A stretch of DNA of 63,986 nt, counting the filler, from Cladosporium halotolerans (Eukaryota): the NCBI RefSeq assembly GCF_011745625.1. It is 5 parts of 5 records of this genome, joined end to end, with 100 filler letters (N's around TTAATTAATTAA, not from the genome) between each part and the next. Parts side by side here need not be neighbours in the genome. Positions count along the whole stretch, not along the records: positions 13,490 to 26,818 come from NW_027191569.1; 4 more parts are not named here. The stretch is one strand, 5' to 3'. The notes beneath the pieces were generated by a model, which saw only the letters and a list, made by a program, of their open reading frames with translations, was not told the DNA's origin and did no database searches. This document shows positions 938 through 26,918 of this stretch, piece by piece (the stretch's first letter is position 1; each line of letters starts with the position of its first letter). A program made the position numbers and the translations under genes.

Positions 938-1421
938 ATGAGTTCGTCTGTCTCTCGATCAGCAGCTGGAGTTTCACTTCCACCAGCAATGGCGAACAAT
1001 TTGGGCAACATTTGCAATGATGCAGAAGAATCCGCAACAGTCGAGGGCCTTACAGAAGCAGTGGCAAGAATGGAGCACGAACAGCGAGACTTTCAAATTC
1101 TTCAGCCCGCCACCGGAGATACGCAACATCATTTACGTCCTCTCGCTAGATGCTGAGATCGAGCCGTCTCCAAAAGCGAAGGAGAGGAAGATCCATCGGC
1201 CACTCGGCAATCCAGGCACTTCGATAATGCATCTCAATAAGCAGTCATGGACTGAGGCCAGCTCATATCTCTTCAGCACAAACGCGTTTTTGCTGATACA
1301 CGCATCGCTGACAGAGAGACTGATCAGCAATGAAATATTGTCGCAGAAGAATACGCAGCCTCTGCTTGGCTTTATCCCACGAGCATACGTTCAAGCTCTT
1401 CAGAGTGATATCCGTAGATAA
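938..1421 (+). pseudogene. Degenerate gene with F-box-like 'FxxLPxEIRxxIY' motif
   Basis: ATG 938 frame (MSSSVSRS...RMEHEQRD) shifts into the 1017..1421 frame carrying FKFFSPPPEIRNIIY; frameshift and early stop. Confidence 0.4.
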
Positions 1422-5220: not shown

Positions 5221-5517
5221 TATATCGCATTCTCATAGTCAAACCTATACATACACGTATCCACCGTATCCTGAAGTTGAAACTCCTGTCCCCGTGCACG
5301 GCGTGCCATAGACGAGATCGAGCTCGCCAGCGGTGGACATTCGGACTTCGATGAACGGGAACAGCCGTGCCGAGGTGAGATCTCTCTGCTTTCGCAGCGC
5401 AAGCCCGAGCGCAACAAACTATCCCGCCGCGTCCCTCCTCCCTACCGGATCTCTTCGGCAGTCTGTTATCATTTGCTCGGCCTGCAACCATCCTGTACGC
5501 GGACTCCACAACTCGAG

Positions 5518-8252: not shown

Positions 8253-9015
8253 AGTGGCCTAGCGGTTCATGTGCCCCGGCGTACGCGAGCTGGTAAACGA
8301 ACCTTGATATCGAGCGAGATTCCAGAATCGTTTAGTAACATGACAAAAATGCTTCGCTTGACCGGCAGTGGTGTCACGCCATTGACTTGCAGTGCGATCT
8401 TATTAACCTGTCGTGCGACTGTGTTACCCTGCTATGCTCTGCTGTGGGTCAACCTCTATACGTCATCGCATCGCTAGACTACGCTTTCCAAGAAGTGAGT
8501 TCTCGCTCCTATGTCTTTCCAGCGAGTGGGAGAGCACGGTTCACGTCCGCACAAGGCTGGGTATTCTCCTTTTGCCTCTTGAAGCTTCGGCGAAAGATCT
8601 TGAGCTTGTCCGTCGACCCTCATAGAACATTGGTATCGCTGATGAAGCATGGAAAAGAGTAGTTACGACAATTCAATCACAACGAAACAACAGCTATGTG
8701 CGAAGCGTGGATCTTTTCCTTTCACTCGCAAAAAAGGCACTAGAGCAGAAGATTCCAAGCACTTCTTGGAAAGCGTCGTCTGCCCGTACGACGACGTATA
8801 GGAAGTTGATCCACAACATCGCGCCACAGCGTCGCACAGCATGGTGACACAGTCGCACTGCGCGTCACTCATGTGTCGCTGCTCCAGCTGAGAGATATTA
8901 CTGTTGTGGTGTTACTGAACGATTCGTGCTTCTCGCTTGATATCGAAGCTTATTTACCCCCTTGCTTAAAGACACGAAGCACTCGGACACTGTGTCTACT
9001 CACCGCTGCGGCCAA
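8253..9015. repeat. Degenerate long inverted repeat (foldback/MITE-like relic)
   Basis: Left arm (e.g. ggtaaacgaaccttgatatcgagcgag ~8292; gcgactgtgttacc..acgctttccaagaagtg ~8415-8497) matches the reverse complement of ~8700-8960; outer ends approximate. Confidence 0.7.
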
Positions 9016-9633
9016 GACGTGAAGCTTGTCCGCTCCGATTGCAGCAAAGAAGGAAAGACAACATGTACATGTGCAACTAGGTGTAGTCTGTCGCAGTTCC
9101 TCGGGTCTCACAAATTACTCTGTTGTGTATCAGGTTTCTGCGAGCATGCAAGGATGATGGGCCAAACTCATTACGCAAAATCTATCTCATCACGCTTATA
9201 TCAAGACGAGGCCAATCGCTCTATGCGGCTTCAAAAGCGAAAGACTAGTCGGCAAACAGCCGCCGAAGGCGCCTCTAGCCAACGTCAAAGGGAAAAACTT
9301 GATTCCATCGCCGCCGACTATGGCAGCGCCAACCACGGGGAAAGTCACCACCGGTGCAGGCCAGTGGCGTAAGGTCACTGTAGCATCGTTATGCGACACG
9401 AGAGTCGTCAACCCGATGCCACCCGATCCAACCACCAGTTGTCGCGCCTTTCGATCCACACCTAATCCTTCATTACATGCAGCCCCATCTGAATCTGTCA
9501 ATCACCAGCACAATGATTTCAGAGAACCCGCTACTCTCTTTATACCACAGATGGTCATGCGGAGAGCCGGAGGGGGATTGACTCGTCCTTTCCAATTCTC
9601 AGAGATCGTGACGATCGCACTAGATCATTTGAC

Positions 9634-10053
9634 TTGAAAAATGCTCTCCCAATCTCCCACTGCCACCTCCAGCCAATCACCAGAGGCGATGTTCGTTCGA
9701 ATGGCAATCAGAACGTATTGAAGGGCCATCCCACACCACATGATTCAACTCAAGAAAAGTCTCGGCCCAACAGACCTTCTTACACTGAGGAGCAGAAATT
9801 CTCCATCATGTACTACCGCATCATCAAAGAGCTCTCCTGGCCTGAGATAGAGCTTGCATTCGGAAAGCTTTTCGATCCACGGACCACAGATGGTCTTACC
9901 AGCGTATACTACCGCGTTCGGAAGAGTTGGGGCGAAGTCTCGAAGACCGAATCGACATCAGTCAACGACCGTAACACGATTGAGCTTCAATCCGTCCGTT
10001 TTTCCAAGGCCTTTTTGATAGAGCTTGGCTATTGTGACGGGGAGGACGTGTAG
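9634..10053 (+). CDS. Myb/homeodomain-like HTH protein (C-terminal part; true start may lie upstream near 9320)
   Basis: RPSYTEEQKFSIMYYRIIKELSWPEIELAF..RTTDGLTSVYYRVRKSWG three-helix motif. Confidence 0.6.
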   Translation: MKNALPISHCHLQPITRGDVRSNGNQNVLKGHPTPHDSTQEKSRPNRPSYTEEQKFSIMYYRIIKELSWPEIELAFGKLFDPRTTDGLTSVYYRVRKSWGEVSKTESTSVNDRNTIELQSVRFSKAFLIELGYCDGEDV

Positions 10054-11851
10054 GTGCCTTGCAGCCCTCATTCGATCTGGGCATGCGAGCTTTGGGACAC
10101 ATTTTGACATTCGATACAGCGTATGCAATGGGAAACCGACTTTGATAGTGCCGCTTTGATAGTTGAGCTTGTCGGTGCCTAAGGGTGATTGGTCCACCAT
10201 CAGCGAAGTCGTGCCCGCACCCATCGAAACGACACCTCTCAGCATGCGCTTTATTTCCGCTTCGCTTACGTAGGGGTGCAGTACGGGTCAGTTACTTCTT
10301 GTGTGAGCTTCAGTGGGTGTCTGTTAACCGCACCTGGAGATGAAACTACCGCATCATCAAAGAGCTCTTCTGGCCTGGAATAGAGCTTGAGTTCGCAAAA
10401 TTTTTGGATCAATGGCGCACAGATGGTCTCACCAGCGTCTCTACTGAGCACCAAACCAATGCCTGCGAATGACACAATGATTGAAAGTAAAGCTTCATAC
10501 GTTTGCGGTGTCTTGGCCATGACGATGAGTAAGGCTATGTCGAAGACGAATGTCCCTTTCATTGTTGAGTTGCTCAGGGATAAAAGCATTCTCCCGCTGA
10601 TCCGCTTGCCTTATGTCCAAGGTCGATCTCCGGATTGCAGGATCTACCTTGTTGCTTCTTTGGCTTGCTTTGAATCCGGCTCTGGGACTGTATGCTCAGC
10701 AGATGCTGTATGTCATTCTGTGCCGTTTGCTCTGTGGCTGTATGGTCTGCAACTCGTTCTTGTTATACGATCGTATATTCTCATATTTCTGCTTGTTCTT
10801 TTGTGGTAGTGTTTTGCTCTCTAGCTGATGCCATATTTTCTTCGACTTTCTTTGGACAATTGGGTGCTTGTACATGGCGCTGCTAGAAAGCTTCACTTGG
10901 GCCCGGCATACGCGAAGGATCGATGTGATGCGACTCGTGAAGCATGTATCAAAATCCACCCACGTTCGGAAGTATCGCAACATTTGTCTATTCAAGGATC
11001 TGCTCCAAATTAATTTCAACCTGACGCTCTCGACTTTCATCAGGCCATTCGCAAGGTTGGAGCACTAAGCTTTCCGTCTTCTCAATAGCGCACTAGACTA
11101 CCACCTGCAATTGTGTACTTGCCAGGTGAGCACTTTCGCTGGTGTGCATTCGAAGTTCGGGCGCCGAATCTACGTTGTGACGCGAGAATTCCTTTGCGAA
11201 GCCTCTGCATGAGAAGACTCGCTTCAACCATCTGTAGCGAAAGGCCATCGCGGTCATGTGGCAGCCTGTGGGATCAGAGTCGAGACAGCAAGTATGGGGG
11301 GACGAGGCGTAGCAGCCTGCCATCCATCGGAACATGCCCTGGCTTCAAGGAAACGGGTGAAAAACATTGCAAAACCTTACTGCCTCAAAGCCACACTGCT
11401 TTCGACCCCGGATGTGCCAGTTCGTGTCTCTGGTGTCTCCCGTCAATCCCTAGGACCGCAGCGCTGTGCTTGGCAAAAGTAAGGCTTGGCGTCGGTGCCC
11501 AGCCGAAGCGCCGGACCAGGCCAAGCTTGACAGGCGCTGTTTCTCGTCAGATCTTACGCGCGCGCTTATTTCCTCTGTTCGGACTCTGCCTTCAGCTCGT
11601 CAGCTATGGGATGCGGTGATGGTCTCGGGAGAGTGAGAGACATGTTTACTGGTCATACCGCAGGCCGCCATATGCATAGACCACTCCCTTGTCGGCGCTC
11701 TCCCATCACTACCGAACATAAGCATGGCAGCCTCAAGCCCGACGGCAACCTCCCTTCCTAGCGGGATACCCGAGACCGACCAGGAATTGCTGAAATTTGC
11801 GCAGGCAAGGGTGATCTGCAGAAGCTGAATAAAATCTGCGCACAGTGGGAA

Positions 11852-13292
11852 ATGACACCTCTCGAAGTGTACAATCACTTTGGAATATTCGCTTGGTCAA
11901 AGAAGTTCCTGCGCGGATTGGGACAATTCTCGAGAAATGTACCAGACAGGCAGACCGAAATGCAATTGCTTAATGAGAGCCAGAAGTCGTCGCAAAGACG
12001 CGAGAAGAAGACCAGTAACCCAAAATTTTGGTGCGTGGCCGACGTTGAAACAGCGATAGAATCCCTGCACGATCAGGACAATAGTACTCCCAGCACTTCG
12101 AAATCAAATTCCGCAAGGCGCTCGCCAAAGATGCGTAGAGGGAGAGAAGTGCAAGAAATCCATACACCGCCGCACACCGTTACTGCGGAAAAGACTAGGA
12201 TGCGGGCCCCCTCCCCTAGAGGCATACCGAGTCGAAGCAGTGGAGCTGCTAATCTGTTCGTTCGATGTCATCCACTCAAGCACCTCTCCGTTTGATGATG
12301 CAGAGTCGCCCACTTTGACAGCAGAAGGCCTCCTCCATACACCAATATCATCCCAATCATCAGATTTAGTAACGTTGGCTGCAGCTGCAGAACAGACCCT
12401 ACGCCGCCTCAAGTCGTGCGGAACCGCAAGCGACCTGAAGAGTCTGTAGGCGCAAGCTCTTTACATCATTCTGTTGCAGCCGCTGACCAGGCGCCTCCTA
12501 TGCAAGAATTGATCACCCAATTTGACCACCAGTTAGCACTGGTGGACGACGAGCCGCCGTCCTGAACACCCCCGATGGTAGGCCCTGTCAATACACTATT
12601 GCGGGCTTTCAATCCGAACCCACTAAATTTCCACGTCGCGCCCGCGGGAGTGCTTGAGACAGAAAGGACGTCAAGCAATGCTCAAACAATAATGGAGTCG
12701 AGCGGCGGATGCACCTTCTTCCTTCTTCCGCTGTATCTTGTGGATACAGCGCATTGGGCATTGGTGGTGATACGAGACCGAAAGCGAGACTACTGCGGTG
12801 TTTTTCACACTCTTGGCCCTCCCACGTCCGCCGAATCCTTCCAACCACTCGTAGCCTTGCTTGCAGAGCAGGGCTTTCTGCGGGCAGGGCAGTCAGCGAA
12901 TCTCGATCTATTCCCTGAACTCCGTCAGAAGCGCGATGCAGATGGAATTGTTCTATTGGCAGCTGTGGCGCTTCACACCTTGCATGAGAAACCGGGCAGA
13001 ACTTTGGGGCGAGTTCCTGCGTGGTTGTCTCTTCTCTCGGGATGAACAATCAGGAGCGTGGTGGCGGAATCACCGTACCGATCTGATCAAGCAAACCTTA
13101 TCAGAGATGGCGCGTGATACGGTCATCAACTTAGAACAAAAGACCAAGGACGCGGAAGCGCTGAGCAATGTCCTCAAACAAGTACGCTCGTACATAGAGC
13201 AATCAAAGTCTCTTCGCGGGCTGACCCAGTCACAGTTGCGAAGCGCTGATATCCGTCGGAAGTTGGGGAACCTCGAGTCGTGGCATCAAAAC
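11852..13292 (+). pseudogene. Ulp1/C48-like SUMO protease gene, frameshifted, truncated by hAT insertion
   Basis: LLPLYLVDTAHWALVVI (catalytic His motif); RQKRDADGIV where Q..DCG is expected; split over ORFs 11852-12295, 12240-12449, 12575-13045, 12861-13292. Confidence 0.5.
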
Positions 13293-13389
13293 CAGGGTGT
13301 TCATCAGACAGACAGACAAGATTTTCGGGAGTGTCTGGTCTGCTTACCTAAGGAGCGGTGGCTTGTCTGTCTGTCTGAGAAATGGCAAT
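13293..13389. mobile_element. hAT transposon terminus (TIR CAGGGTGTTCATCAGACAGAC) with CAGA subterminal repeats
   Basis: 21-bp identity to the terminus of the hAT at 51622; runs into the gap. Confidence 0.75.
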
Positions 13390-13489
13390 NNNNNNNNNNN
13401 NNNNNNNNNNNNNNNNNNNNNNNNNNNNNNNNNTTAATTAATTAANNNNNNNNNNNNNNNNNNNNNNNNNNNNNNNNNNNNNNNNNNNN
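13390..13489. other. Artificial contig linker (N-TTAATTAATTAA-N)
   Basis: 100-nt spacer with all-frame stop cassette. Confidence 0.97.
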
Positions 13490-13861
13490 CTTACCTGGTG
13501 GCGCGAACATCATCACAGGTTTCCTGTCCTGAGGCATCTCGCTTTTGAGATCCTCGCAGCGCCAGCAAGCTCTTCCGCCGACGAGCGAATCTTTTCGATG
13601 GCTGGGGACGTTGTCAACGATGAGCGACCAAACACGATGGAGGAGTTGGCAGAGGCTTACCAGGGTTTACGCAGCTGGTACTCGGAAGGACTACTGTGAT
13701 GGACATAAGCTTCTTACACTCCCGAGCACCCGGGAGGACCGTGCACCGAACGAACGACGAACATCCGAGTGGACCCTGAACAAATGAACAACACCTGTCC
13801 AAGAAGCCGAACGAACGAGCACTACGCCTGTTCGGTGTTCGTTTGTTCATTGCCCACCCTG
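13490..13861 (+). mobile_element. hAT transposon 3' end: dimerisation domain (13490-13699) plus right TIR
   Basis: Manual translation LTWWREHHHRFPVLRHLAFEILAAPASSSADERIFSMAGDVV..LRSWYSEGLL*; GAAC subterminal repeats; ends ...cattgcccaccCTG. Confidence 0.85.
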
Positions 13862-15416
13862 GTTGGAGAGGGTTAGAAGGGAGAGGAGGGTGGGATTTAA
13901 GTTTGGACCGGGCACACAAGAAGGCGAATAAGAGAGAGAGGGAGGTGTGATGGGTAGGGTGGATGCAGACAGCCGTTAGCGTGGCGGTTGGGGAGCGGCG
14001 TGGACAGGTTGTGAACACAAGCGTAGGATGCGGATGCATTAGCGTAACGAAGTGCCCGAAAGGTCGGTTCGAGGACAGAAGCGAGGTGGCGGGGGAAGGA
14101 ACGGGAAGGATGGAGGGTGATTGATTGGGAAGGACAGAGAAAGACGAAGGCGTAGTGAAGGGGACGGATGAAGGTCAAGTTCAGACATAGTGTGTGTTGA
14201 CAAGTGTAGAGGGTAGGGGTAGGTATGTGAGTGGGATGCCCGTACGGAGGCATAGGACGGCACGAAGTGGCATGATCGAAGGCAGGGGTGGAAGGAAGAC
14301 GTTTAGAGGTGGCAGTGAGAGAGGATGGAGGATAGGGAATAGTGAGGTAGGAATAGAGTTTGAGAAGGGAAGAGGAGAGTTTTGGGAGGAAGTATGGATG
14401 TTTCAGAGAGAGAAGAGGGGGAGAATTTTGATTTTGGGTCAAAAGAGGGGGGGATAGCGGGGGAATGGAGAAGAGAGAATAAGACGAAGGCAATCGACAA
14501 AGCAAGCATGGAGTCGGTGTTTGAGTAGAGGATGTCGAGTCGGATTATGTCAGCAGGGCGTGAACGTGGGGATGAGTCAGCAAAATCAAAATCATGATCG
14601 GAACGTATACAACGCAGCAAGAGACAAAGAGAGCAAGCGGCGTCATTTTATGGCAAGGATGGTTGGAGCGAGATTGAAAGTGGAATCGGGAGGGAGAAAG
14701 AAAAGTGGGTGAGAAGAATAAGGTAAATAGGGAGAGATGAGGAAGAAAAGAGAAGAAAAGAGAAGAAAAGAAAAGAAAAGAAAAGAGGTGAGGGTTAGGG
14801 TGTATAGAAGATTGGGAGTGTGATGTAGTGGAGGGTTAGTTGAAGTAAGTGAGGGTTGAGTGAGGGAGGGGGGATTAAAGAAGTGAAGTGGGGAGTGAAT
14901 TGGTAGGTGAAATGGAGGGAGTGTGATGAGGGGAGAGTTTGGAGGATGATAATAATTAAGGTGAGTAAGAAGAATGAGGTGGAGAGGGAGAGATGGGGAG
15001 AAAAGAAGAAAAAAAAAAAAAAAGGGGGGTTTTTTTTTTTTTGTTTTAAGAAGGAAGAAGAGAATGAGAGAGGAAGGAATGAAATGGTAAATGTAATATG
15101 AAGGAGAAGAGAGAGAGAGAAGGATGAGGGTTAGGGTGTATAGAGGTTGGTAGATTAGATTATAGAGTGGATTGTAGGAGATGGATATGAGGGTGTATAG
15201 AAGTTGAGGAGTAAGGGAAAGGGTTAGGGGATAGTAGAAGAGAAGAGTAGATTGATGGAAGGTAAGAGAAGGGTATGAAAGGGGAAATAGATAGAGGATA
15301 GTGTTGATTAAAGGTGGTAGGGGAGGAAAGGAAGGAGGAAGAAGAAAGGAGAAGATAAGGTAGAGGAGGGTAGGTAGTTAGGGTGTTTTAGGGTTTTAGG
15401 GTTAGGGTTAGGAGTT
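13862..15416 (+). repeat. Strand-asymmetric G/A-rich tract, including a 729-nt C-free stretch (14688-15416) with embedded GGGTTAG motifs
   Basis: No C between 14687 and 15417 by inspection; (GAAAA)n; A15-G6-T13 at 15009-15042; repeated gagggttagggtgtataga. Confidence 0.9.
15378..15412 (+). repeat. Telomere-type repeats (TTAGGG/TTTTAGGG) downstream of the LINE 3' UTR
   Basis: TTAGGG TG TTTTAGGG TTTTAGGG TTAGGG TTAGG. Confidence 0.85.
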
Positions 15417-16200
15417 CAATTTAGAATATCGAAATGCAGCCTAGCAGATGGCGGCAAAGATAAGCTACATACATTGAAGGTCAGACTGCAGAGAGGAGAG
15501 ACAAATCCATGCGCTTCTCTCTGACCAACTGAGTCAGTCGGATCGGGCTGGGGTACCGGATACACCATTCCCCTTTCATGTGCCACCATGCCTGCAGAGG
15601 ATGGATCACGTATAGCCTTCGCGGGCACCCGACGATCCCATCGATGATTCCCATGGTCCTTCCTGACGATACACCCACCGGGTGCACGCCCCATGGACAG
15701 ACAGCGTTGGCCGGTATCCCGCCATCAGGTTTCACTCCCACATCCAGATTAGATATTGTTCGATCGATTGGCAGCCGACTGCCTACGCCTGCGGTGGCAC
15801 GAACTAACATCTTCTCCAGCAAGGAGCCTCAGCGAATCCTCGCGAGACAATCCCAACCGATGGAACCTGCTTTCATCGCCGCCAGGCGACACGGTTATCC
15901 CAGGTGTAAGACCCGAGTTCCCGTCGGTTCGATCAGAAGCCGAGACCACCCAATCCAGGGTACGTTCGCCTTCCTTAACCCGGTCGACACCTCACTTCCG
16001 GGGGAATGTGCACGCCTCGTGATGGCAGGTCTAACGCACGCAGCACGCAAGCCGACTCTCCCAACCTACTACGCGGCCACAGCCAGCCGAGTATGAGTGG
16101 GCCCCGAAATGGGAAGTGCTGAATCCACAGCTCCACCCAAAAGAGAACCCCACTCTGGAATGGCAAACCCATGCCAGGCATGCGAGGGGTCAACACGACC
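15417..16200 (-). ncRNA. Putative highly structured RNA (LINE 3' UTR)
   Basis: Stems that need G:U pairs on the minus strand: 15525-15541, 15669-15687, and 15875-15890 inside the 15855-15929 stem; no convincing ORF. Confidence 0.5.
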
Positions 16201-16673
16201 AAACGCTAGCGGAGTACCACCCCAAGAAGATTTCCACGCTCACTTCTAGGAGCACCCTCTGTAGAAAAAGGTCGAAACAAGAAGCGGGCCAGAGTCCACT
16301 GGCACCCACCCACAACACCTGGAGTCCACCAGCAGTATCGTCACCCATCAAGCCAGCCGGAGTCCACCGGCATCAGCTAGATAGATGTGATCGATCCTCC
16401 TCTCCAGAAGACGACGTCTGGAGTCCACCAGCAACGCCACGATCCCACGAGCAGGGCCCGGAACAAATCCCGACCCCGGACGGGACGAGAGTTCAGCCCT
16501 ACGAGTCAAGCCACACTAAGCACAGCCACATCGTCGAAGCCACACCTGGAAACGGCCACACTCGACACGGCATCGACACCGTCCCCCCTCTCGACATCCT
16601 CAGGTCATGACCAGGTTATGAGACCAGGTCAGTCCGTCATCGGATACATCGATCAGGGTGTGATGTGGCCGGT

Positions 16674-19600
16674 TCAGTTCGTACCATCCGATGGTACCAA
16701 GTCACGTGGTCGCGGCGCCACAGAGGATTCTGTCGGTTCGAGAAGAGTCGGGTCATTCTCCAATTGCATCCGTGCAGAATAGACATCGCCAAGTGCTCTA
16801 CGTATGGCAGCAAGCGCTGGACCGGCACGATGATATTGCCTAGTATTCAGTAGGAAGTCCAGATGGGTGAAGCTGGCGGACACACCAATGCCGAGCCGCT
16901 TCGCCATTTCGCTCTTCCGGCGTAGCTCGGTGCCAGACAACTGAGGCGGCCGTGGCAAGTACCTACAGTCCTCGTGGCCACGGCGGAATATCACGTCTGG
17001 GCCACAAGCACATAGTTTCCCGAATTGGAAGCGGCCCATTCTGTATCTCACGAAATTTTGTTGATGTTCCAAGGGAGCGAAGAAGACCCAATCGGCACCG
17101 TACAGTGAAGTGGTAGATCGAGATCGCGCAGTCAAGCGGGTGAGATGTCGCGACTGACAGGACAGCATCACCTCGAAGCGTCGCGAACGCCGAAGATGGA
17201 GACGCAGAAGACGACGCGAGCAAGGCAGGGATCGACTCTGCCGAGCGATCGAAGACCATTCCGGTACGTCTCGAAGGCTGTCGAGGAACGGGCGACCGAC
17301 GGGGGCTCGAGGTAGGAAAGGTCGAGAAGCCAAGCAAGAACTTAGCGGACTGTCGGCAGGTGCGAGGCTGAGCAGCCGCTGGAAAGAAGTATGCAGGTGT
17401 GGAAAGCGGATCTCGGGCTCGAGGATACCGCAGAGGTTGGCACCGACGGCGGACCCGTCAGGGCTGCAATCAAGAATCCACCCAATGAGGTCCTTCCAGC
17501 CCACCGTGGCAGCTCGGAAAGCTTTCTTGTTTGCTTCGTTTTGGCGAGACCAGGCAAATATCAGAGGGGCGCCATATTCGAACATAGGGGCAAGATATCT
17601 GCCGTATATGCGCAGACGGTGGGCTGGACCCCAACTGTCCGAGTGGAGGCGTAGGAAGGATGCACGGCCGGTGGCTTGGGAGATGCGTTTGCTCAGATAG
17701 CCGGCGAAATCAATCCCGTTCGATCCCACAGGGAAGCCAAGGTAGGTGTAAGACTCAACGATCGGCAAAGGCTTCCCACAGATGAGGATAGGATGCGACG
17801 CGTGTTCGAGAGCGACAGCGCGTCCAAGAACGAGCCCGCACTTTTTGACATTCACAGCTATGCCAGCCTCAGCGCTCCACTCCGTCAGGAGATCGGCGAG
17901 GCAGCGCAGTGAGGGCAGATCTTGTGCGAGGAGGACGCCGTCGTCGGCATAGAAAAGACTCCGAGGAATGCCGACAGCAGAGTCGTTCAAACGCACGATC
18001 AACTCGTCGATGTAGATGTTGAAGAGGTAAGGTGGGAGAGGCGAGCCTTGCAAGACACCTCTCGTGCGAGGGAACCAGTCAGATGACTGGCCGTTGACGA
18101 GGACGCGGGAGCGTAGACCTCGAAAAGTGAGGTTTTCTATCAAGTTGCGAATCCTGCCCGGGCAGCCACGCCGAACCAGCAGGGCACGGAGGCGTGTGTG
18201 ATCGACCATATCGAACGCTTTCTCGAGGTCTATGAATGCAGCGTAGCGGACCAAGCCGGTCGAGAGCAGGTGGTGCACGACTGCAGCGTTAGTGAGAGTA
18301 GAGTAGTCGCCGCGAAAACCAGCTTGGGTGGGATGCAGCTTCCCCCAACCGGATTTGTCGAAAAAGTGTACGAGCAAGAGCCTCTCGAACAGTTTGCGGT
18401 GCATACATATCAGAGTGATGGGCCTGACGTTGTCGACGTCTCGAGGACGATTAGTGTCCTTGGTAACCATGTGTACATCGGTCGAGTTCCATGAGGCGGG
18501 AGTGCTTCCGCTGGAGAGGCAAAGATTGAACAGTCGACCGAGCACTTTAGGATAGCACGACGGTAGCAGTGCCTTGATGACACGCATGTGCACGCCGTCC
18601 AAGCCGCAGGTCTTGCTCGCATCTTGTCTGCGGATCTCCCTCACCACATGGCTTTCTGAGAGCTCATCGCGGCTCTGGTCTGCTCCGGCGCCGTCGACCG
18701 GTTCGTTGGACACCAAGGCTCGACCGGCATACCGGTCTGCGAGTGAGTCAGATATCTCTCGCAAAGCCGAGAGCCCCCCCGAACGTCCACGCTCGGAAGG
18801 TAGAATGTCGCCATTCTCTCGAGACTCGGCCGCGGCCGACTTGTAAAGTAAAGTGCTGACTTGCGGGTCTTGTCGGTTGGCGGGAACCTTCTTCCTGCTT
18901 ACGCCAGCCGCGGTGGAAGATCTTTTCTGACCAAGGAACCTCCGACAGATCGATCGGACCAGAGCAATCAGACGGCGTTCCAGAGCGGCAGCGTTGACTG
19001 GCACTGCAGCAGACAACAAGCTGAGCGACCTCGTCCCCTCGTCGAAAGCGGCGCACATGTCCCTCCGCACAGTTTCGTCAGACAACTTTCCCAGGTGGAA
19101 GCGAATGGCAGCCGGTGCGTCACCCTGGCACGAAGGGGTCGGCTGGCGAGCACTCAGGTGCAGGCAAAGGGTATAGGCGTGATCGGTGGGCAGGCCTATC
19201 GATGGATTGTCCAGCAAGAAGAAGTTGGCATCGGCGACCCGCCCAGACTGGACGAAACAGTGATCCACGGTGAGTAGCTTCCTCAACACCACCCCGGCAG
19301 GGAGACCGGGTTGTGGTGAAGCATCGGGCTCGGTAGCCTCGAGGGTAGTGAACCCGTGCGAGCGAGCGAAGTCGGACAGAGCTTCCACCCTCTCGGGCGG
19401 GCCAGGTCGACCGAGCTGTGTCTGCAGCCACGGCAAGCGAGCGTTGACGTCTCCCAGGACAACGTGCGACGCTGCCACCGAGCCGAGGGCAGCGACGACG
19501 TCCTCGCTAGACATGCTAGGCTGCAGATAGACGGCGGAGACGGAAGAGGCATCGGCGTGGAAGGTGACGGTCGACGGCGTGGTCCGGACGTCACCCACGA

Positions 19601-19952
19601 GGCGACCTCGTGCGGAAGCCGAGGCCAAGAGGTATATCCCGCCGCCGTTGCGGGTACGCTGGAGCGATGGCGATGGAAGGGGTGTCGAAGCGACGAAGCG
19701 GCGGTCGCGGACATGCCGCTCGTGCCCGACGAACCACGTCTCTGCAAGGAAGAGAAAATCGAAGGAGGTGTGGAGGAGCTTGAGGCAGGCCGTCCACTTC
19801 ATCTGATCGAGTCCGTTGACGTTCACATACCCGACTCTGACGCTAGCCGAGCCTCCTCGCAAGTGCGCCGATCCTGCGGACTTCCTGCTCAAAGGCTGCT
19901 GTGACTGTGGCTTGCTTCGCACGTGCCCGGATGGCTTTCTTTCCCGGGCCAT
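16674..19952 (-). CDS. LINE ORF2: AP endonuclease + reverse transcriptase + C-terminal Cys/His knuckle
   Basis: APE: YVNVNGL, LAETW, GGGIYL, VLGDVNAR, DHCF, TDH; RT: RPITL, QAGFR, FIDLEKAFD, GVLQGSPL, YADD, YLG; C-terminal CACG..RGHEDC; 1092 aa intact. Confidence 0.95.
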   Translation of the reverse strand: MARERKPSGHVRSKPQSQQPLSRKSAGSAHLRGGSASVRVGYVNVNGLDQMKWTACLKLLHTSFDFLFLAETWFVGHERHVRDRRFVASTPLPSPSLQRTRNGGGIYLLASASARGRLVGDVRTTPSTVTFHADASSVSAVYLQPSMSSEDVVAALGSVAASHVVLGDVNARLPWLQTQLGRPGPPERVEALSDFARSHGFTTLEATEPDASPQPGLPAGVVLRKLLTVDHCFVQSGRVADANFFLLDNPSIGLPTDHAYTLCLHLSARQPTPSCQGDAPAAIRFHLGKLSDETVRRDMCAAFDEGTRSLSLLSAAVPVNAAALERRLIALVRSICRRFLGQKRSSTAAGVSRKKVPANRQDPQVSTLLYKSAAAESRENGDILPSERGRSGGLSALREISDSLADRYAGRALVSNEPVDGAGADQSRDELSESHVVREIRRQDASKTCGLDGVHMRVIKALLPSCYPKVLGRLFNLCLSSGSTPASWNSTDVHMVTKDTNRPRDVDNVRPITLICMHRKLFERLLLVHFFDKSGWGKLHPTQAGFRGDYSTLTNAAVVHHLLSTGLVRYAAFIDLEKAFDMVDHTRLRALLVRRGCPGRIRNLIENLTFRGLRSRVLVNGQSSDWFPRTRGVLQGSPLPPYLFNIYIDELIVRLNDSAVGIPRSLFYADDGVLLAQDLPSLRCLADLLTEWSAEAGIAVNVKKCGLVLGRAVALEHASHPILICGKPLPIVESYTYLGFPVGSNGIDFAGYLSKRISQATGRASFLRLHSDSWGPAHRLRIYGRYLAPMFEYGAPLIFAWSRQNEANKKAFRAATVGWKDLIGWILDCSPDGSAVGANLCGILEPEIRFPHLHTSFQRLLSLAPADSPLSSCLASRPFLPRAPVGRPFLDSLRDVPEWSSIARQSRSLPCSRRLLRLHLRRSRRFEVMLSCQSRHLTRLTARSRSTTSLYGADWVFFAPLEHQQNFVRYRMGRFQFGKLCACGPDVIFRRGHEDCRYLPRPPQLSGTELRRKSEMAKRLGIGVSASFTHLDFLLNTRQYHRAGPALAAIRRALGDVYSARMQLENDPTLLEPTESSVAPRPRDLVPSDGTN

Positions 19953-20898
19953 CGGCGGCGTGGAAGTCGGCGGCCAACGTGCTGGCCAAGGGGAGTGGCG
20001 GAGGTGCTTCTTCTCTGGCGTCAGACGAAGAGACGTCGGCGTCAGAAGGACTGATCTCGATCAAAGCCCCAACCCCAGGTGGCCCAGAGCAAGCAGGCGA
20101 GGAAGAGGAGGGAGGCGTTGGAGGGCGTGCCACCGCGCGCAGAGCGAGGCCCTTCGCTTCGTGTATGCCCAGGTACTCTTCCGGTGACAGGCTGTTCTCT
20201 CGTGTCCGGTCGCCGCCCTCACACAGAGCTCCGATGAGCCCGTCCAGCTTGGCTCGGATGTCGACCAGGCCGTCGATCAAGCCGGGCGGCGAAGATAGGA
20301 TGTGCTCTGCCCCGACGACGTCCACCGCGGTCGGCTCAGTCGCGGGAGGATCCTCAGACCTTTCTCCACAGGTGGCCGCCTCCACAGGGGGAGGTAAGCT
20401 GGTGGCGGGAGTGAAGAAGTTCAGGCGACGTTTGGTCGACGGGGGAGTCGCTTGTGCGGCAGCTGTCCGTTTCAGAGGAGTGGGCGCGACGCAAGGAGAG
20501 GGCCCGTCTTGCAAGAGGAGCCCCAAACGACAGTGCTCGGGTCCCTTGTCCTCGAAGCCGGCGCGGATTCCTTCCACGATCGAACGGAAAGGTTCACGAG
20601 CGACTTGCGTCTTGGCCCAGTCGATGTAAGCGGCGTTGCCCAAGCTCGGGCAGGCGAACTTGCCGTTGGTGGTGCAGCACCACCTGCGATAGACCCTGTC
20701 CTCGCCGTCACGCTTGCCGGCCAGGTTCTTGACGTAGTTCCCCTTGCGTTCCCTCTCGGACGAAGAACAGCTCTTGCAAGGCAGGTAAGAGGCGTACTTG
20801 GCGTGCAAACCCTCCGCGACCAGGGCCAGGCCGCCCTCGGGGCTGACGGTCGAAGGCTTTCTGGTGCGGCGTGGAGCGAACCTGCTGGAGATGGGCAT
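19843..20898 (-). CDS. LINE ORF1 (Cys-motif protein), overlaps ORF2 by 110 nt
   Basis: ATG 20898 (MPISSRF); LPCKSC...RWCCTTNGKFAC; Pro/Ser-rich linker; TATAAG about 75 nt upstream. Confidence 0.7.
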   Translation of the reverse strand: MPISSRFAPRRTRKPSTVSPEGGLALVAEGLHAKYASYLPCKSCSSSERERKGNYVKNLAGKRDGEDRVYRRWCCTTNGKFACPSLGNAAYIDWAKTQVAREPFRSIVEGIRAGFEDKGPEHCRLGLLLQDGPSPCVAPTPLKRTAAAQATPPSTKRRLNFFTPATSLPPPVEAATCGERSEDPPATEPTAVDVVGAEHILSSPPGLIDGLVDIRAKLDGLIGALCEGGDRTRENSLSPEEYLGIHEAKGLALRAVARPPTPPSSSSPACSGPPGVGALIEISPSDADVSSSDAREEAPPPLPLASTLAADFHAADGPGKKAIRARAKQATVTAAFEQEVRRIGALARRLG

Positions 20899-21359
20899 GG
20901 GAGTGTGGCAGTGAAGAAGGCGACGATTGGGAAAGTGACGAGAGAGTCCCCCAGAGCCCAGGAAGGGCCCATACTTATAGCCGGAGGCACACGTCGTTGG
21001 AGCACGTCGAGATCGATCGATCACTCCAATGGCCGTGATATCGTTTCGAAAACTGCATCGCCAGCCTCTGTCACGCTACATGCGTCGTGGGATGGCGGCC
21101 GGCGTGCATGAGGCACCCGCATACAGACGCACACGTCGTCCGATCGAGCGTGTGATCAGACGAGCGCAGCGTCCCAGGCACAGAACCAGCCAGGCCTCGA
21201 TCAATCGTGGGGCCACTTCCACATCACTGCAGGAGGTAAAGGTCAAAGCAAGCAGAGAGAGACATCACAGGGACCGGTAGAGCTTGGAGCGGGCAAGCGA
21301 GATTTAAATACAGTCTACAATGCAGAACAACCTCGTTCGTACCATGGCATGGGGTGTAA

Positions 21360-22913
21360 TCACGTGACATCCGTCTCTTCCAGGAAGGCGCCGTCCTGAG
21401 TGAAGGCATCTTCCTCTTCGTCTCGCGCGGGCAGAGACGGCAACAGGATCGAAGGGTCTCGACAGTCGCGGCCCATTTCTTCGAACGATACCTCCTCGAG
21501 CCTCAACCGCACCGGAGGCTTCTTCCCACTCAAGGCGCCTTCTACCAGCGACCATGTCCGTTCGACCATCGTTGCGTCCGGGCGGTTGTGACGTCGTAGA
21601 ATGTTCAGCCAAACGTCAAACTGCGTGGCCGAGAGCGTCTGCTCCACCCAAGAATTCGTCACAGCGCTGCTAGGCAAGAGGGCAAAGATGCCAGGGCCAA
21701 ACTCGGCCCGCAGACGCGCCCACCGCTCTCCGTAATGCAGCTGGTGCTCGAAGCGCCTCGCCTGCCGCCGGTATTCCTCCCCTTTCGGGTCCAGGTCGGG
21801 GTGAGCTTCTTTGAGTCTGGCCTTCTTCACTTCGCCGAACTTCTTCTTCCAGCCGAGGTTGGGTTTGACGGTGGGTCGCAACAGTGCTTGGAAAGCTTCC
21901 CAGAAGTCAGCCAGCCTTCCCCGACGCACGACGGCGCGCACAAAGTCGTCGGCATCGTCGCAGAGCGCCCAGTACGCCGACACGTGTACGGCGACGATGG
22001 CCTCCTTGTCCTTCCCCTCAGGCACGCGCTCCGCCCACTCACCCCGGAGCGCCGTGGTCTTGCGTTCGACGTCGCCCTTCGTTTCGTACATCAGCCCATC
22101 CCGCCACTTGCGGCAGAGGCCAAGCAGGTCTTCCATGGCTCCAGGGCCGGCGACGGCGAAGACGGCGTCGAGGATCTTGTCAACCGCCACCGGAGAAGTT
22201 CGTGATGCTTTGCCCAGCCCCAGCTTGAGCATGGCTTCAGCTTCCGCCCGACCAGAGCGTGTGACGCCGGCTCCGATCTCCTCGACCACGGCAGGTGTCG
22301 ATGCCCTCTCGGAGGGCGGGCCAGAGGGGGTTGGCGAGATTGCTCGCTCGAGGGTGGAGACGACGTCTTCGGCGGCCAAGGGCGGGTCGGCATCGCTTCC
22401 CTCGACACTTGGCTCGACACCTTCGCCCTGGTCGTCTCCGGAGTCGTCGACGACCGTGGCTCTCGAACGTTTCCTCCGGCCAAGGTCCCCCTCTCCAAGC
22501 TCGGCCGCTTCCTGCCGCCGCTTGCGGTCCCTCTCGCGTTTGCGATTCTTGCTGGTGACGGCGAGAACGTAGCGTGGCAGCGCCGCAGTCCTCTCCGCCA
22601 CAGAGCGTTGCGACGCCGACACGAAGAGCGGGCCCGGCGTCTCGGTCAACTCGCGGTGTCGCCTTTCGTCGACGAATCCCTCCCCGTTGCAGGCAGCGCA
22701 GGAGTATCGCTCGCCGTTCGACCGTCGAGGCGAGGGTGTCTTCTGGAGCGAGGCCATGGCGTGGACAAAGGTGTCAAAGCACGAGTGGCGGGCGAGAGAG
22801 GTGGAAGTGGGCGCCATGCCACTGACGAGGCCGGCGGCGGGGCCATCACGCCGCTCGCACGAGACCTGCTGCCTTCGCGTGGCGGCGTGACGACGTGCAT
22901 TGCATCGTTCCAT
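21360..22913 (-). CDS. ORF0, uncharacterised protein carried at the 5' end of the LINE
   Basis: 517-aa open frame; CAAC motif, basic NLS-like stretch, helical domain YGERWARLRAEFGPGIFALLP; same strand and GC as ORF1/ORF2. Confidence 0.7.
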   Translation of the reverse strand: MERCNARRHAATRRQQVSCERRDGPAAGLVSGMAPTSTSLARHSCFDTFVHAMASLQKTPSPRRSNGERYSCAACNGEGFVDERRHRELTETPGPLFVSASQRSVAERTAALPRYVLAVTSKNRKRERDRKRRQEAAELGEGDLGRRKRSRATVVDDSGDDQGEGVEPSVEGSDADPPLAAEDVVSTLERAISPTPSGPPSERASTPAVVEEIGAGVTRSGRAEAEAMLKLGLGKASRTSPVAVDKILDAVFAVAGPGAMEDLLGLCRKWRDGLMYETKGDVERKTTALRGEWAERVPEGKDKEAIVAVHVSAYWALCDDADDFVRAVVRRGRLADFWEAFQALLRPTVKPNLGWKKKFGEVKKARLKEAHPDLDPKGEEYRRQARRFEHQLHYGERWARLRAEFGPGIFALLPSSAVTNSWVEQTLSATQFDVWLNILRRHNRPDATMVERTWSLVEGALSGKKPPVRLRLEEVSFEEMGRDCRDPSILLPSLPARDEEEDAFTQDGAFLEETDVT

Positions 22914-23009
22914 CGTTTCACCCCGTTGCTCGTTTGGCCGGATTGGGGATGTCGCGCAGGGCTCAACGCTGCGGACCGGCAGAGCTTAAACGGACGTCAG
23001 CTTAGGGTT

Positions 23010-23864
23010 TGAACCATAGCCGTCGAGCAATAGAAGCCGCCAGGTACCTCTTTGGCTCTGTTGAGAATGCTTCTCAAAGTGTGCGATCCATTCAAGCATG
23101 AGTTCGTCGTTCATATAGCCTGAATCGGCGACTCCTATAAGCGTTGCATCGTGAAGGGCTTGGAACCACGTGGATTGGTGCTGTTTCGCGGCGATTACGA
23201 GCATAGCTGGTATAGCTTCACCTGCAGCTGAGATGGCTTCAACCACTGTGAGGCTCTCACGGTTATTCGCAGTTGGTAGGAAGTGAGACTTCTCAGGATG
23301 CTCGGTAAGTATGTAATGGCTCTTCGAAGCGCCAATTCGAAAGCCTGTTTCATCCATGTTCCATATGTTTTCAGGTGTAATGCCATGGTCATGGATAACT
23401 ACCTTGAGCTTCTCATACCACCTCTCAATGTCGGCTAGGTCGTAGGCAGCCGCGCGAACAGCCTCAAGAGGTGCTTGCTTACGCTTCTTCCAAACCGGGT
23501 ATCGTTGAAGGAAGCGCGTGGTCCATGAGAGGCTGATCGTTGGTGGTAATGAGGCCTCTGAATGCGCACGCCGTAAGATCGAGTTTGCCGATATTGAGAT
23601 TGCGCGCGGCCGTGCATTCACTCCTAGAGCCTCACAACGCTTCAGCCACGTAACAAGTGCAGCCTCCTGATCGTTGTCAAGCTTCTTGTTTGTAGGCGCT
23701 CTTGTAGATCGTGAATCTACACCTCGAAGGCGTCTACCAAGGCGTTGGTAGGGAACATCGAACAACGTAGCCAAAAGGGTAATTCTCGGCGGTTCAGGCT
23801 GTTCAAATTGAAATTCAACAGCTTGATTAATCCGCTCTTCAATTTGTTGATACTCAGAAGCCAT
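23010..23864 (-). pseudogene. pogo/Fot1 (Tc1-mariner, DDE_1) transposase, truncated at LLLDGYGS
   Basis: psq/CENP-B HTH, IWNMDETGF, DSGYMNDE, RLLLLDGYGS, then AACCCTAA in place of the expected His codon; 13-bp direct repeats GATCGTTGAGCTG at 23918 and 23935 mark the likely TIR. Confidence 0.9.
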
Positions 23865-25205
23865 GGTGGGTGAATGGTATAGGTGAGAAGGCAGTGGATA
23901 CCTCAAAACACGACGTTGATCGTTGAGCTGAACCGATCGTTGAGCTGCACGGCACTCGCTCGCGAGTTCTGGCCGCGGGGAGCCTTGGCCGGCACGACTG
24001 CACGGATACCCTCTCCCCCTGAGCCCAGCTTAGAAAGGCCCTCTGAACGTGCCTGCCAGCTGAGAAGCTTTCCCTCACTTGCTGCAGATGAGCCTCTCGG
24101 ATTCCCAAAGGCACTATTAGGACCTGGAACCGCGCTATCAGTTCAGGACGATCCGACACTAGGCTTTCTAGCCCACGGCAGGTACGACTTTTGGAGAGGC
24201 GTGATGCCTTTCGGCTCTCAACAGACTCCTCCAGACGATTGCGCGCCCTGGGAACAGTTGGTATACTATAACTTGTCGACCTCATATCCTCCGTCAATCC
24301 CCCATGCCTGGCACCCGTCACAAGAACGTCAGCCGGCATTGTACGGCAACTTTCAAGAAGCCGGACATTCTAGTCTTATTTCCTCGAATGTTGGATACCA
24401 GTCACTGGCTGGGCAAGAAGTACAGCCGGTCGAAACAGCGACCTACGCCTCTCTCGATTTCCACCGTGCAACTACGCGGGGAGCAGTCAGCGGTCTTCAA
24501 CCGGCGCCTGGTAACACACTAGTGGAGTCCTTCGCAAGCTAAGATAGCCTTCTCTGCTTCTCCTCTTCCGCGCCAGCAGCGCCTCCAACCTCTGCAGCAT
24601 CTGGTACCCTCTCCTTGCCGAGTACCCGACTAAGAGGAGCGGACCCCCGCCAATCGCAGTAACTTTGAACGCCAACCTCACTGAAGAGTTTGGAATAAGT
24701 TACGTCTCATAGTGAGGTAGACGGAGCTCACCCCGAGGAAAAGGGGGGACACATTTTCCAAGACTAATGTCTGCTTGCACCGCTATAATAGGGCGGAAAG
24801 TATTCTGGTCAATATGGTGAGAATGGTCACTTACAAATGGTCGCTACCGAATGAACGTTGGCCCTTTGATCGACGGGAATGGATTCAAGTCCTCTCGCTC
24901 TACAAGTCCAGGTATCCAATCGAGTAAGATGAAAAAGCGCCGCGCGCTCTTATTGGCTGTTCACGATGATGATGATGAAGTTCATTCCGCCTGGCGCCAA
25001 GCATAAAGGGCAACTGACTGTCGCAGCCTAAGGAAATTGGGAGACCTCGGTCGAGAACTGCAGATCACGCTTGCCAAGACATTAGATAGGTCAGCCCGGT
25101 CAACCCGACCGTGGACTTTGACAGAAACAATCAACTCATGACTTTTGAGTATCACGCACTTTCACCTTCGACAGGTATAGCCGACAGCGGGACTTTAACT
25201 AAGGG

Positions 25206-25516
25206 GTAAGCGTATTAGGTAAGGAAGAGGGGTTCTAGCTAAGGCACTAGGTACGGTTCGTTGTAAATAGTGACTCCAATTGAATATTTAGGTTGCGAAC
25301 GAGGCTCCTATGAAAGAGTGTAAAGTACCTGTCCTATATACCAAGGAGACCGGTGAGCGCTCAATCCCAAGCTGAGCGTGAGCATCTCAGTCTTAACTGA
25401 GACTGAGCCGTCGCTGCTCAGTGGACCAGTCACGTGACTCTATGAGTCCTGACTGGCCCGCTTGTTGAGCCTATAGCAATGGCTTAGCGGGAGGGTCTTT
25501 GGGATTGCTCATCACA
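25206..25516 (-). mobile_element. Possible solo LTR relic
   Basis: Minus strand begins TGTGATG, has TATATA and an LTR-like length; other end not canonical. Confidence 0.25.
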
Positions 25517-25546
25517 CATTGACCCTGCTGAGCACTGGCACAGCGA

Positions 25547-25766
25547 TTTTTTTTATTTTTTTATTTTTTTTAATCATACTGTATGCAAGCTATTTAGCTT
25601 ATGACAGGCCTGGGCTAATTCCCAGACATTTCTTGGTCTTCTATCTGTGCTCTCGCGTTGGTGTCGTTCCTTCGATCCTGCTCGCCATCCCGCCTTACTC
25701 AAGGCGCCACGGCTTTTGGGCTCAGCGCGCTCCTACTGGTCTGTCTTGGTGGTCGCAACTGCTGAC
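25547..25766 (-). mobile_element. 3' end of a second (Tad-like) LINE with A-rich tail
   Basis: Minus strand ...CTGTCATAAGCTAAATAGCTTGCATACAG.. stem-loop followed by an (A7T)n tail; cut by the hAT at 25767. Confidence 0.4.
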
Positions 25767-26542
25767 CATAGTGTTTGAATCTTGAATCGCGATTCAATCA
25801 ATTCAGGTTTGAATTGATTGAATTGAATTTGAATTCGGTCCGTTTGAATTGATTGAATCGGAGTCAATTCAGCCGGTGCTTCTTCGGCAGAGGTATGTCC
25901 TCGAAAATTCGGCCTATACAGCATTCTGAGGTGAATACAACTAACCATGGCTGATCGACCTAGACGAAGCGGCCTCACACAGACATTTGCTGTTCCTGAC
26001 GAGGATGATATATATTATGATCCATCAATTGCACCGTTGGAAGATCCCTCGGGGCCTGCGGAAGAGACTGACACCTCCAGCCTTTACAATACCAACGAGA
26101 CAATTGCCGCCTTCTTTAACGGTTCGTACAGTCCAACCGTGGAAAGCCAGTCAACTACACCTCCTACGCCTACGCCAGGCCCAGTCATTCCTACTGTAGC
26201 TACTACGCCACAGTTTCTCAAGCGGAAGAGACAGAGCAGTACTCCGCATAGGGGCGCAGGGCAGAAAGACAAGGCGCTTTGGAAGCACTCGAGAGCACGA
26301 TTGCCCTATTAGATGCTCGGAGTTGTTAAAAGACTGGCTACACCGTGGAATCCCTCACGCACTGCCAACTAATTACGTTGATAGCGATCAAGACAGCGAC
26401 AACGAGCCATAGAACAGCATGTTTGTGTAGCAACACCTGAATCTTGAATTGAATTGAATTGAATCCGAATTCCTCTGATTCAGCCTGAATTGAATCCGAA
26501 TCCAGGCCTCTGAATTGAATAATTCAGGATTCATAATCTATG
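25767..26542 (+). mobile_element. Internally deleted non-autonomous hAT-like element
   Basis: Imperfect TIRs CATAGTGTTTGAATCTTGAAT / CATAGATTATGAATCCTGAAT; TGAAT subterminal arrays; transposase-like N-terminus 25947-26312; no TSD visible. Confidence 0.7.
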
Positions 26543-26818
26543 GTTACCGTTCACAATGAATAGTTGCTGACATCTCTTTTCGTGCTCGCAGAGGTAGCAG
26601 TAGTACACATCCTTCTGGTCCTTGAGACGTCGCAACAGCTCTCCATATCGCCACACTGGGGATGCTTTCTTACGTGTAGCTTTTTTGGTTTCGACTCGCA
26701 TTTGCAATTTGCAACATCGATCAGTGCTGTTATTGGTTCGGTTGGTGCTGGTTCTGTGGTCAAACCGACACCAACCGGCAACTCGACATGTAAGAACCAT
26801 TTGACCAGATGGTGAACC
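26543..26818 (-). pseudogene. hAT transposase fragment (BED zinc finger) interrupted by the preceding element
   Basis: SPVWRYGELL..VYYCYLCEHEK. Confidence 0.6.
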
Positions 26819-26918
26819 NNNNNNNNNNNNNNNNNNNNNNNNNNNNNNNNNNNNNNNNNNNNTTAATTAATTAANNNNNNNNNNNNNNNNNNNNNNNNNN
26901 NNNNNNNNNNNNNNNNNN
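26819..26918. other. Artificial contig linker
   Basis: N-TTAATTAATTAA-N. Confidence 0.97.

Follow-up and report, generated by a model that had tools for sequence, protein, structure and literature searches.

The window analysed here is a stretch of 63,986 nt from the Cladosporium halotolerans genome assembly GCF_011745625.1, in which five contigs are joined by spacers (N44-TTAATTAATTAA-N44 at 13390–13489, 26819–26918, 40037–40136 and 53220–53319), so that distances between features of different pieces are meaningless. One piece (13490–26818) contains in its entirety, together with both flanks, a long interspersed nuclear element (LINE) with three open reading frames (ORFs) on the minus strand. 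A preliminary description of this DNA had placed intact ORF2, ORF1 and ORF0 here, with the 3' region of the element RNA running into telomere repeats and a further repeat at the point where a pogo transposase is cut, and had read the whole as the relic of a telomere-targeting or telomere-extending lineage of APE-type LINEs. The three frames were indeed open in these places, a TTAGGG-like tract adjoined the 3' end, and a short repeat lay at 23002–23009, with DNA homology to the closest full-length relative (locus L002, from the collection described below) ending exactly at 23001 and the alignment of the pogo frame to other pogo copies stopping at ~22998. The features of the locus are listed below.

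14688–15377, plus strand: C-free tract (G, A and T only), directly beside the 3' junction
15378–15413, plus strand: telomere-like tract, TTAGGG TGTTTTAGGG TTTTAGGG TTAGGG TTAGGA
15414–16673, minus strand: 3' untranslated region (UTR), 1.26 kb long, downstream of ORF2
16674–19952, minus strand: ORF2, 1092 aa
19149–19844, minus strand: APE endonuclease in ORF2 (~aa 37–268)
17730–18437, minus strand: reverse transcriptase (RT; RVT_1) in ORF2 (aa 506–741)
ORF2 aa 981–996, minus strand: C-terminal motif CxC-x9-H-x2-C
19843–20898, minus strand: ORF1, ~351 aa counted from the conserved Met
21360–22757, minus strand: ORF0, ~465 aa counted from the conserved Met
22758–23001, minus strand: 5' UTR remnant; the copy begins at L002 nt 3557
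23002–23009, plus strand: 5' junction repeat TTAGGGTT (AACCCTAA in element sense)
23010–23999, minus strand: pogo/Tc5-type transposase fragment, truncated on its C-terminal side and comprising HTH_Tnp_Tc5 with the first half of DDE_1

Sequencing depth in an isolate run was 94.5 over the element and 88–95 over its flanks, and contigs of independent public runs spanned both junctions, which are thus not assembly artefacts; the structure is real and single-copy, and neither blastn nor tblastn found a further copy of the element in the 64-kb window. The window copy has intact ORFs, is slightly 5'-truncated, and belongs to a superfamily characterised by ORF2 (APE and RT), ORF1 and a family-specific ORF0.

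Telomere repeats terminate related elements

Relatives were collected from metagenome contigs by ORF2 alignment alone, a choice blind to telomere sequence; 196 pattern matches gave 69 confirmed ones and finally 68 loci (L001 onwards). A protein search with ORF2 returned 28 relatives, the named ones coming from Hortaea werneckii and Cladosporium. Loci that retained the C-terminus of ORF2 and continued for 780 nt or more beyond it (26 of 68) were considered informative for the 3' tail, with the identical sequences L022, L023 and L049 counted as one junction. Of these 26 loci, 20 had an element ending in ...GAACCCCTAACCCTAA, always in sense orientation. Expressed as a search motif, CC[CT]AACCCTAA or AACCCCTAA occurred in sense 0.78–4.1 kb downstream of ORF2 in these same 20 loci and in the opposite orientation in none of the 68. 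Under a stricter pattern, L039 held one perfect (TTAGGG)2, within an unrelated ORF.

Alignment of 17 of the 3' ends, spanning lineages down to 33–40% ORF2 identity, left a sole invariant block, C..CCTAACCCTAA, preceded by GAAC or AAAC. Several groups of sister copies (the window copy with L002, L003 and L005; L012 with L030; L015 with L034) shared this end and then passed into unrelated flanks, which means that the element itself ends at two telomere units, followed by 0–3 more. No poly(A) was found at the 3' ends; CCCTAA units stood in its place, and after 2–3 of them the flank was mostly non-telomeric. At the window copy, the last two units of the tract (15402–15413) match, apart from one C>T change, the terminal CCCCTAACCCTAA that is invariant in the family. 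The claim that an APE-type LINE lineage targets or extends telomeres was supported by this sense-oriented CCCTAA junction and by the linkage of ORF0 to ORF1 and ORF2 in other copies (below), so that neither of the outcomes named in the preliminary description as refuting it, copies lacking such junctions or an unlinked ORF0, was observed.

Two contigs reached a telomere array, and both joined it to a 5'-truncated copy. L047 starts with (CCCTAA)11 and L050 with (TAACCC)16, in each case connected directly to an ORF2 truncated in its APE region; at the 3' end of L050, 1.3 kb past ORF2, AACCCCTAA is followed by non-telomeric DNA. These two copies look exactly like the products of addition to a chromosome end and subsequent capping. 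No array was present at any other contig end among the 68 loci. The window copy, likewise 5'-truncated, is internal, as are L002, L014 and L049.

A single locus, L024, held a head-to-tail pair (1–4588 and 4589–14241) separated by (CCCTAA)2. Its two units share their last ~260 nt, the 3' ends being 97.7% identical; the upstream unit carries ORF0 and neither ORF1 nor ORF2, and the downstream unit carries ORF1 and ORF2 with no recognisable ORF0, so they may represent non-autonomous and autonomous partners. Among neighbouring genes, the 3' flank of L012 encodes a 1963-aa OrsD, DEAD and Helicase_C frame, a helicase of the telomere-linked type, L002 lies next to a PIF1-like helicase and L003 next to a NACHT-WD40 gene.

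Telomere-like sequence was also seen away from these ends. A second CCTAACCCTAACC motif directly follows the ORF2 stop in L010 (10575–10591) and L018 (6409–6421), in addition to the terminal one. With at most one mismatch, TTAGGGTTAGGG occurs six times in the window, compared with 0.12 expected. A short plus-strand tract, CCCCAACCCTAACCCTAACAACCCTCAACCC, lies at 32217–32250, with no ORF0, ORF1 or ORF2 homology near it (tblastn); it was dropped as a possible facing partner of the 15378–15413 tract, being on a different contig.

The 5' junction and the truncated pogo

The L002 element begins at L002 nt 3330, and the window copy is ~227 nt shorter at its 5' end. In L002, AACCCTAACCCTT stands immediately ahead of the 5' end, and a CCCTAACCCTT variant is found at both its 5' and its 3' junction. 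Both internal 5' junctions that could be placed, those of the window copy and of L002, thus carry a short CCCTAA-type sequence.

No second half of the pogo was found to the left of the LINE. Plain insertion into an intact pogo was ruled out on this ground; a pogo cut at the junction with its other half gone implies at least one rearrangement involving a telomere-like tract. In contigs of public runs, repeat boundaries near the pogo fragment fell at 23965 and 23999. Further pogo/Tc5-type copies occupy 29497–30717 and 60585–62234 of the window, with ~50% identity to each other and ~27% to the truncated one.

Coding capacity

The only Pfam family matched in ORF2 was RVT_1 (9.6e-26), and its closest solved structures by sequence were R2 (5e-19) and L1 ORF2p (8e-14). 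Sequence profiles alone were weak for the endonuclease, with no Pfam call for an APE domain in ORF2 (0.18) and no match of the APE profile among solved structures by sequence. However, residues N44, E71, D168, N170, D230, H231, D257 and H258 were invariant across the N-terminal ~300 aa of 14 sequences of 32–82% identity, and an AlphaFold (AF2) model of this region alone (mean pLDDT 80.2, pTM 0.75) retrieved in Foldseek, as its top matches, the L1 endonuclease (2v0r, E 8.4e-10), L1 ORF2p, the TRAS1 endonuclease (1wdu, E 4.2e-9, TMt 0.69), R1Bm endonuclease and APE1, within an E range of 1e-9 to 1e-7. The catalytic set and the fold thus bear out the APE assigned to ORF2 in the preliminary description, even though Pfam made no call. 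The restriction-enzyme-like (REL) endonuclease motif, CxxC..H..C..RHD/N..E..R/KPD, was found in none of 20 ORF2 relatives, and a C-terminal knuckle CxC-x9-12-H-x2-C in 19 of the same 20. An N-terminal APE together with the lack of the REL motif makes this an APE-type LINE, and by residue conservation and predicted fold its endonuclease is conserved and apparently active.

The ORF1 frame is open over 19843–21024 (minus strand), with the conserved start, M43, at 20898, and overlaps the start of ORF2 by ~110 nt. Its N-terminus is Cys-rich, with a conserved CxxC...RxWxC...C arrangement, and no Pfam family matched the protein. ORF0 is open over 21360–22913 (minus strand), with the conserved start, M53, at 22757, and contains a conserved, all-helical C-terminal domain (aa ~218–495). 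Relatives of ORF0 bear a precomputed PF28402 label; neither a search with a Pfam profile set lacking that family nor the protein atlas gave any indication of the function of ORF0. Structure searches produced no convincing match (best Foldseek E 0.23; best VIA-align Z 6.5 over 49 residues), and toxin and transporter entries among the weak matches were discarded as noise. Neither internal nor terminal repeats were found in the element.

In comparisons with L002, L004 and L001, at synonymous divergence (dS) of 0.54–2.4, the ratio of non-synonymous to synonymous divergence (dN/dS) was 0.16–0.19 for ORF0, 0.19 for ORF1 and 0.10–0.17 for ORF2, indicating purifying selection and maintenance of all three genes. 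Of the earlier view that this copy is a now-interstitial relic, the interstitial part stood, with both junctions bridged and the copy internal; the word relic did not, given open ORFs under purifying selection.

ORF0 proved to be linked to ORF1 and ORF2 in other copies as well, an ORF0-like gene accompanying them in every lineage for which upstream sequence was available. In L002 and L004, homologues lie upstream on the same strand. L010 (3534–5689), L015 (787–2901) and L022 (6295–7941)/L049 have an upstream ORF0-like gene on the opposite strand, which suggests either a divergent element layout in these distant lineages or an antisense gene. Remote homologues of the ORF0 domain are encoded by the upstream ORFs of two further pairs, L001/L017 and L028/L039; hhalign, run with one representative per pair, gave probabilities of 94.8 (L001) and 89.0 (L039).

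The 3' UTR and the C-free tract

The final ~700 nt of the 3' UTR (15414–16100 of the window) are 87–94% identical among four copies whose coding dS is 0.5–2.4. No ORF common in frame and position was found in the 3' UTR, Rfam gave no match over 13490–23100, and folding of 14 3' ends gave no support for a hairpin upstream of the terminal motif, with z mostly near 0 (−3.1 to +1.25). Judging from this conservation, the 3' UTR likely has a cis-acting role, for example in recognition by the RT or as a promoter for a downstream neighbour.

Beyond the 3' junction, the plus strand of the window contains not a single C over 14688–15416 (~725–729 nt, G-free in element sense), and C-poor composition extends left to ~13862. 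Several GGGTTAGGG-like motifs occur within the C-free tract. Comparable G-free (element sense) tracts adjoined 4 of the 15 distinct 3' junctions for which 100 nt or more of flank was available: besides the window, these were L015 (10182–11177, at least 996 nt without G), L023/L049 (L023 3644–4700, three G in ~1.06 kb) and L002 (11035–11134, at least 100 nt without G, with six repeats of one 12-mer). Both in the window and in L023, G (element sense) returns gradually with distance from the junction, and the one-base-less tracts contain local tandem duplications. Deamination of C to T, or RIP (repeat-induced point mutation), was ruled out as their origin, because T makes up only 9–25% and G 27–47% of the C-free tract; neutral decay of TTAGGG arrays fits no better, because no C has arisen over 729 nt. 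The tracts may be preferred targets with many TTAGGG-like sites, or may instead arise by reiterative synthesis as reverse transcription starts.

Two further observations concern this side of the locus. The segment 13490–13861 is a high-copy repeat (depth 635–699 in the isolate run, against ~94 around it), and contig ends branch at 13862. Four runs guessed to be RNA gave identical contigs across the element; one contig spans the 3' junction, and depth in one run fell from ~460 on the C-poor flank to ~3 inside ORF2 (13885 to ~17500); as strand and RNA status are not established for them, these runs were not used as evidence.

A model for end-primed integration and its alternatives

These findings are best accounted for by a widespread ascomycete superfamily of APE-type LINEs whose RNA ends in (CCCUAA)2 and is copied by target-primed reverse transcription from a TTAGGG-bearing DNA 3' end, a reading we regard as highly probable. 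The terminal CCCUAACCCUAA of the RNA would pair with such a 3' end and thereby prime the copying. Were the priming end the chromosome's own G-strand end, the cDNA would be added outwards and extend the chromosome, the element's 5' end would come to face the tip, and telomerase would cap it; alternatively, the APE of the element could supply the priming end by nicking a telomere-like tract. Base pairing, the part played by the APE and capping by telomerase are inferences here; at the window copy, TTAGGGTT may have been made by telomerase rather than by target-site duplication. The near-constant 2–3 units at 3' junctions, and the lack of extra units in L050, fit a tail templated by the element, and the invariance of the APE argues that nicking is also used. 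For the window copy itself, addition to a former chromosome end followed by fusion to a broken pogo and APE-mediated insertion into an interstitial tract, in which case AACCCTAA would be the target duplication, are about equally likely; both routes need an extra event that joined a telomere-like tract to a broken pogo.

Several observations weigh against end-primed integration. The tail motif was absent from 6 of the 26 informative loci, although in two of these the contig stops 23–48 nt before the terminus, as judged by a sister copy. Only L047 and L050 among the 68 loci reached a telomere array, short-read contigs rarely reaching telomeres. The window copy is internal, with at least 3.8 kb of non-telomeric DNA on its 5' side; L014 has ~18 kb on that side and shows no CCCTAA hexamer upstream, and L049 sits inside a 48.5-kb contig. 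Finally, 3' junctions carry 1.5–5 repeats and no long arrays, so insertion into full-length telomeres is unsupported.

Some of this could equally be said of an ordinary dispersed LINE with no link to telomeres, whose CCCTAA-like microsatellite tail arose by chance in the manner of (TAA)n tails: most 3' flanks turn into non-telomeric unique DNA after 2–3 repeats, and many copies, including that of the window, lie inside long contigs. Such an element would hardly carry an exact unit of the host telomere type, invariant down to 33–40% ORF2 identity, or show this unit at both placeable internal 5' junctions; and it is made quite improbable by the array that directly joins a 5'-truncated copy, oriented as predicted, in each of the two contigs that reach one, by the tandem pair of L024 and by the telomere-linked-type helicase beside L012. 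A more serious alternative, which we consider possible though doubtful, is that the APE cuts (TTAGGG)n specifically, as in TRAS and SART, and that all copies are endonuclease-dependent insertions flanked by repeats that are target-site duplications, with no priming from chromosome ends. The invariant catalytic set, the place of the TRAS1 endonuclease among the top fold matches, the several TTAGGG-like sites in the C-free flank, the CCCTAACCCTT variant at both L002 junctions and the window's AACCCTAA at the 5' end with matching units at the 3' end all agree with it, and the short telomere-type sequences flanking the window copy and L002 could, by analogy with TRAS/SART, be target-site duplications in interstitial tracts. 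However, an insertion within an array would be expected to have repeats to either side of it, whereas in L050 the array is present on the 5' side only and the 3' junction consists of the element's own AACCCCTAA and unique DNA; the number of 3' repeats is moreover near-constant at 2–3 and does not vary with position in an array. TART also keeps an APE and attaches to chromosome ends. The objection from repeat number is softened by the instability of long interstitial tracts described for MoTeR elements (PMC7367193).

Breakage, healing or fusion unrelated to integration might have placed repeats at the two ends of the window copy, as the pogo breaks off precisely at the junction and lacks its other half. 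We judge this very improbable, since the 3' repeat falls within a motif common to 17 aligned elements and the 5' homology boundary meets the repeat to the base, with the same pattern in L002. Somewhat less improbable, though still not a reading we would favour, is a domesticated or fixed set of host genes that no longer transposes in this species. Depth equal to that of the flanks (94.5 versus 88–95), the same junctions in a run labelled with another organism, the presence of at least half of the stretch's words in 18 of the 20 runs that hold it, and intact ORFs with low dN/dS would suit such genes. Relatives of 69–84% identity in different flanks imply, on the contrary, movement of the family that is recent on this scale, and a low copy number would be expected in any case in fungi with RIP. 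As an extension of end-primed integration, three-gene APE LINEs of an undescribed superfamily, each bringing its own telomeric tail as primer-binding site, might heal eroded ends beside telomerase throughout the ascomycetes, their RT making the 0.7–1-kb C-free tracts by reiterative, telomerase-like copying; we offer this as a speculation that is unlikely to hold in full.

Comparison with known systems

Telomere-specialised retrotransposons are central to ideas on the relation between telomerase and mobile elements, and to our knowledge the APE-type specialists have so far come from animals only. An APE-type lineage in fungi would amount to an independent origin of telomere targeting, here with a telomeric tail that does not vary, with ORF0 as a third conserved gene, and with conservation of the 3' UTR that greatly exceeds that of synonymous sites; its many sequence-diverse members offer material for testing how LINEs recognise chromosome ends. 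No fungal LINE of the APE type with three ORFs and a telomeric tail turned up in literature searches, subscription journals and Repbase reports being outside their coverage.

TRAS1 and SART1 of Bombyx mori (R1 clade) resemble the present element in being APE-type LINEs of telomere repeats, and the TRAS1 endonuclease is among its best structural matches. These insect elements have poly(A) tails and two ORFs and insert within long (TTAGG)n arrays, whereas the present element ends in the telomere repeat itself, lacks poly(A) and has mostly non-telomeric flanks. HeT-A, TART and TAHRE of Drosophila, with an APE in TART and TAHRE, point their 5' ends to the tip, form head-to-tail arrays and have long 3' UTRs; the long and conserved 3' UTR seen here recalls them, and the ORF0-only unit of L024, which shares its 3' end with an ORF1 and ORF2 unit, is reminiscent of the HeT-A/TART partnership. 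In Drosophila there is no telomerase and the elements have poly(A) ends, in contrast to the present host, which has TTAGGG telomeres, and to the present element, which carries the repeat itself.

Penelope-like elements possess a TERT-like RT and no endonuclease. The present element differs from two of them, Athena and Coprina, in having an APE and an RT that best matches LINE RTs (R2, L1). It resembles them in the 3' telomere repeats and their orientation: as summarised in PMC4522978, Athena and Coprina carry short reverse-complement telomere repeats at their 3' ends, thought to pair with the G-overhang.

Telomere-embedded non-LTR elements of fungi appear in print as MoTeR, FoTeR and Cnl1, which belong to the CRE clade and encode a REL endonuclease (PMC12857005); a 2023 survey has MoTeR1 as its sole fungal entry (PMC10088271). 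The REL type given for MoTeR and Cnl1 in the preliminary description agrees with this account. MoTeR1/2 (Magnaporthe oryzae), FoTeR (Fusarium oxysporum) and Cnl1 (Cryptococcus) have their 5' ends nearest the tip, as L047 and L050 do, and resemble the present family in short interstitial TTAGGG tracts at the junctions and head-to-tail arrays (PMC7367193, PMC12857005), the 5' ends of MoTeRs always facing the chromosome end according to Rahnama et al. (PMC7367193). As described, they have one ORF with a C-terminal REL domain, belong to the CRE/SLACS clade and carry 5' variant repeats, as against the N-terminal APE and three ORFs found here. Interstitial tracts of at least three units break at MoTeR insertions and those of at most two are stable (PMC7367193), which by analogy may further explain why the tracts of the present family are short.

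Closest in several respects is a subtelomeric family of Zymoseptoria tritici (Mycosphaerella graminicola), which the earlier list of fungal telomeric elements, otherwise right on the REL types, had missed. This non-LTR 'family 4' is described as confined to subtelomeres and 3.4–3.5 kb long (Dhillon 2014, PMC4522978), with 1–3 TTAGGG units at a 3' end that always points away from the telomere, and its authors interpreted it as an endonuclease-less Penelope-like element (PMC4522978). Truncated copies were reported to lie in tandem, and the family to be present at 26 of 41 chromosome ends by one count and at 34 of 42 subtelomeres by another (PMC4522978, PMC4589918). The dominant subtelomeric repeat of this fungus has been named 'L1 LINE-like RIL2' (Schotanus 2015, PMC4589918), which going by these accounts is probably 'family 4'. 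On the published description, by which alone the two are compared, it is shorter than the present element, with no APE, ORF1 or ORF0 reported; it shares with it the TTAGGG 3' tail, the fixed polarity and the tandems, and comes from the same fungal class as the present element's named relatives. The Zymoseptoria family may represent the present superfamily in decayed form, and the superfamily may account for the subtelomeric LINE blocks of Zymoseptoria. It is also relevant to the instability of subtelomeres in common fungi that are airborne or associated with plants.

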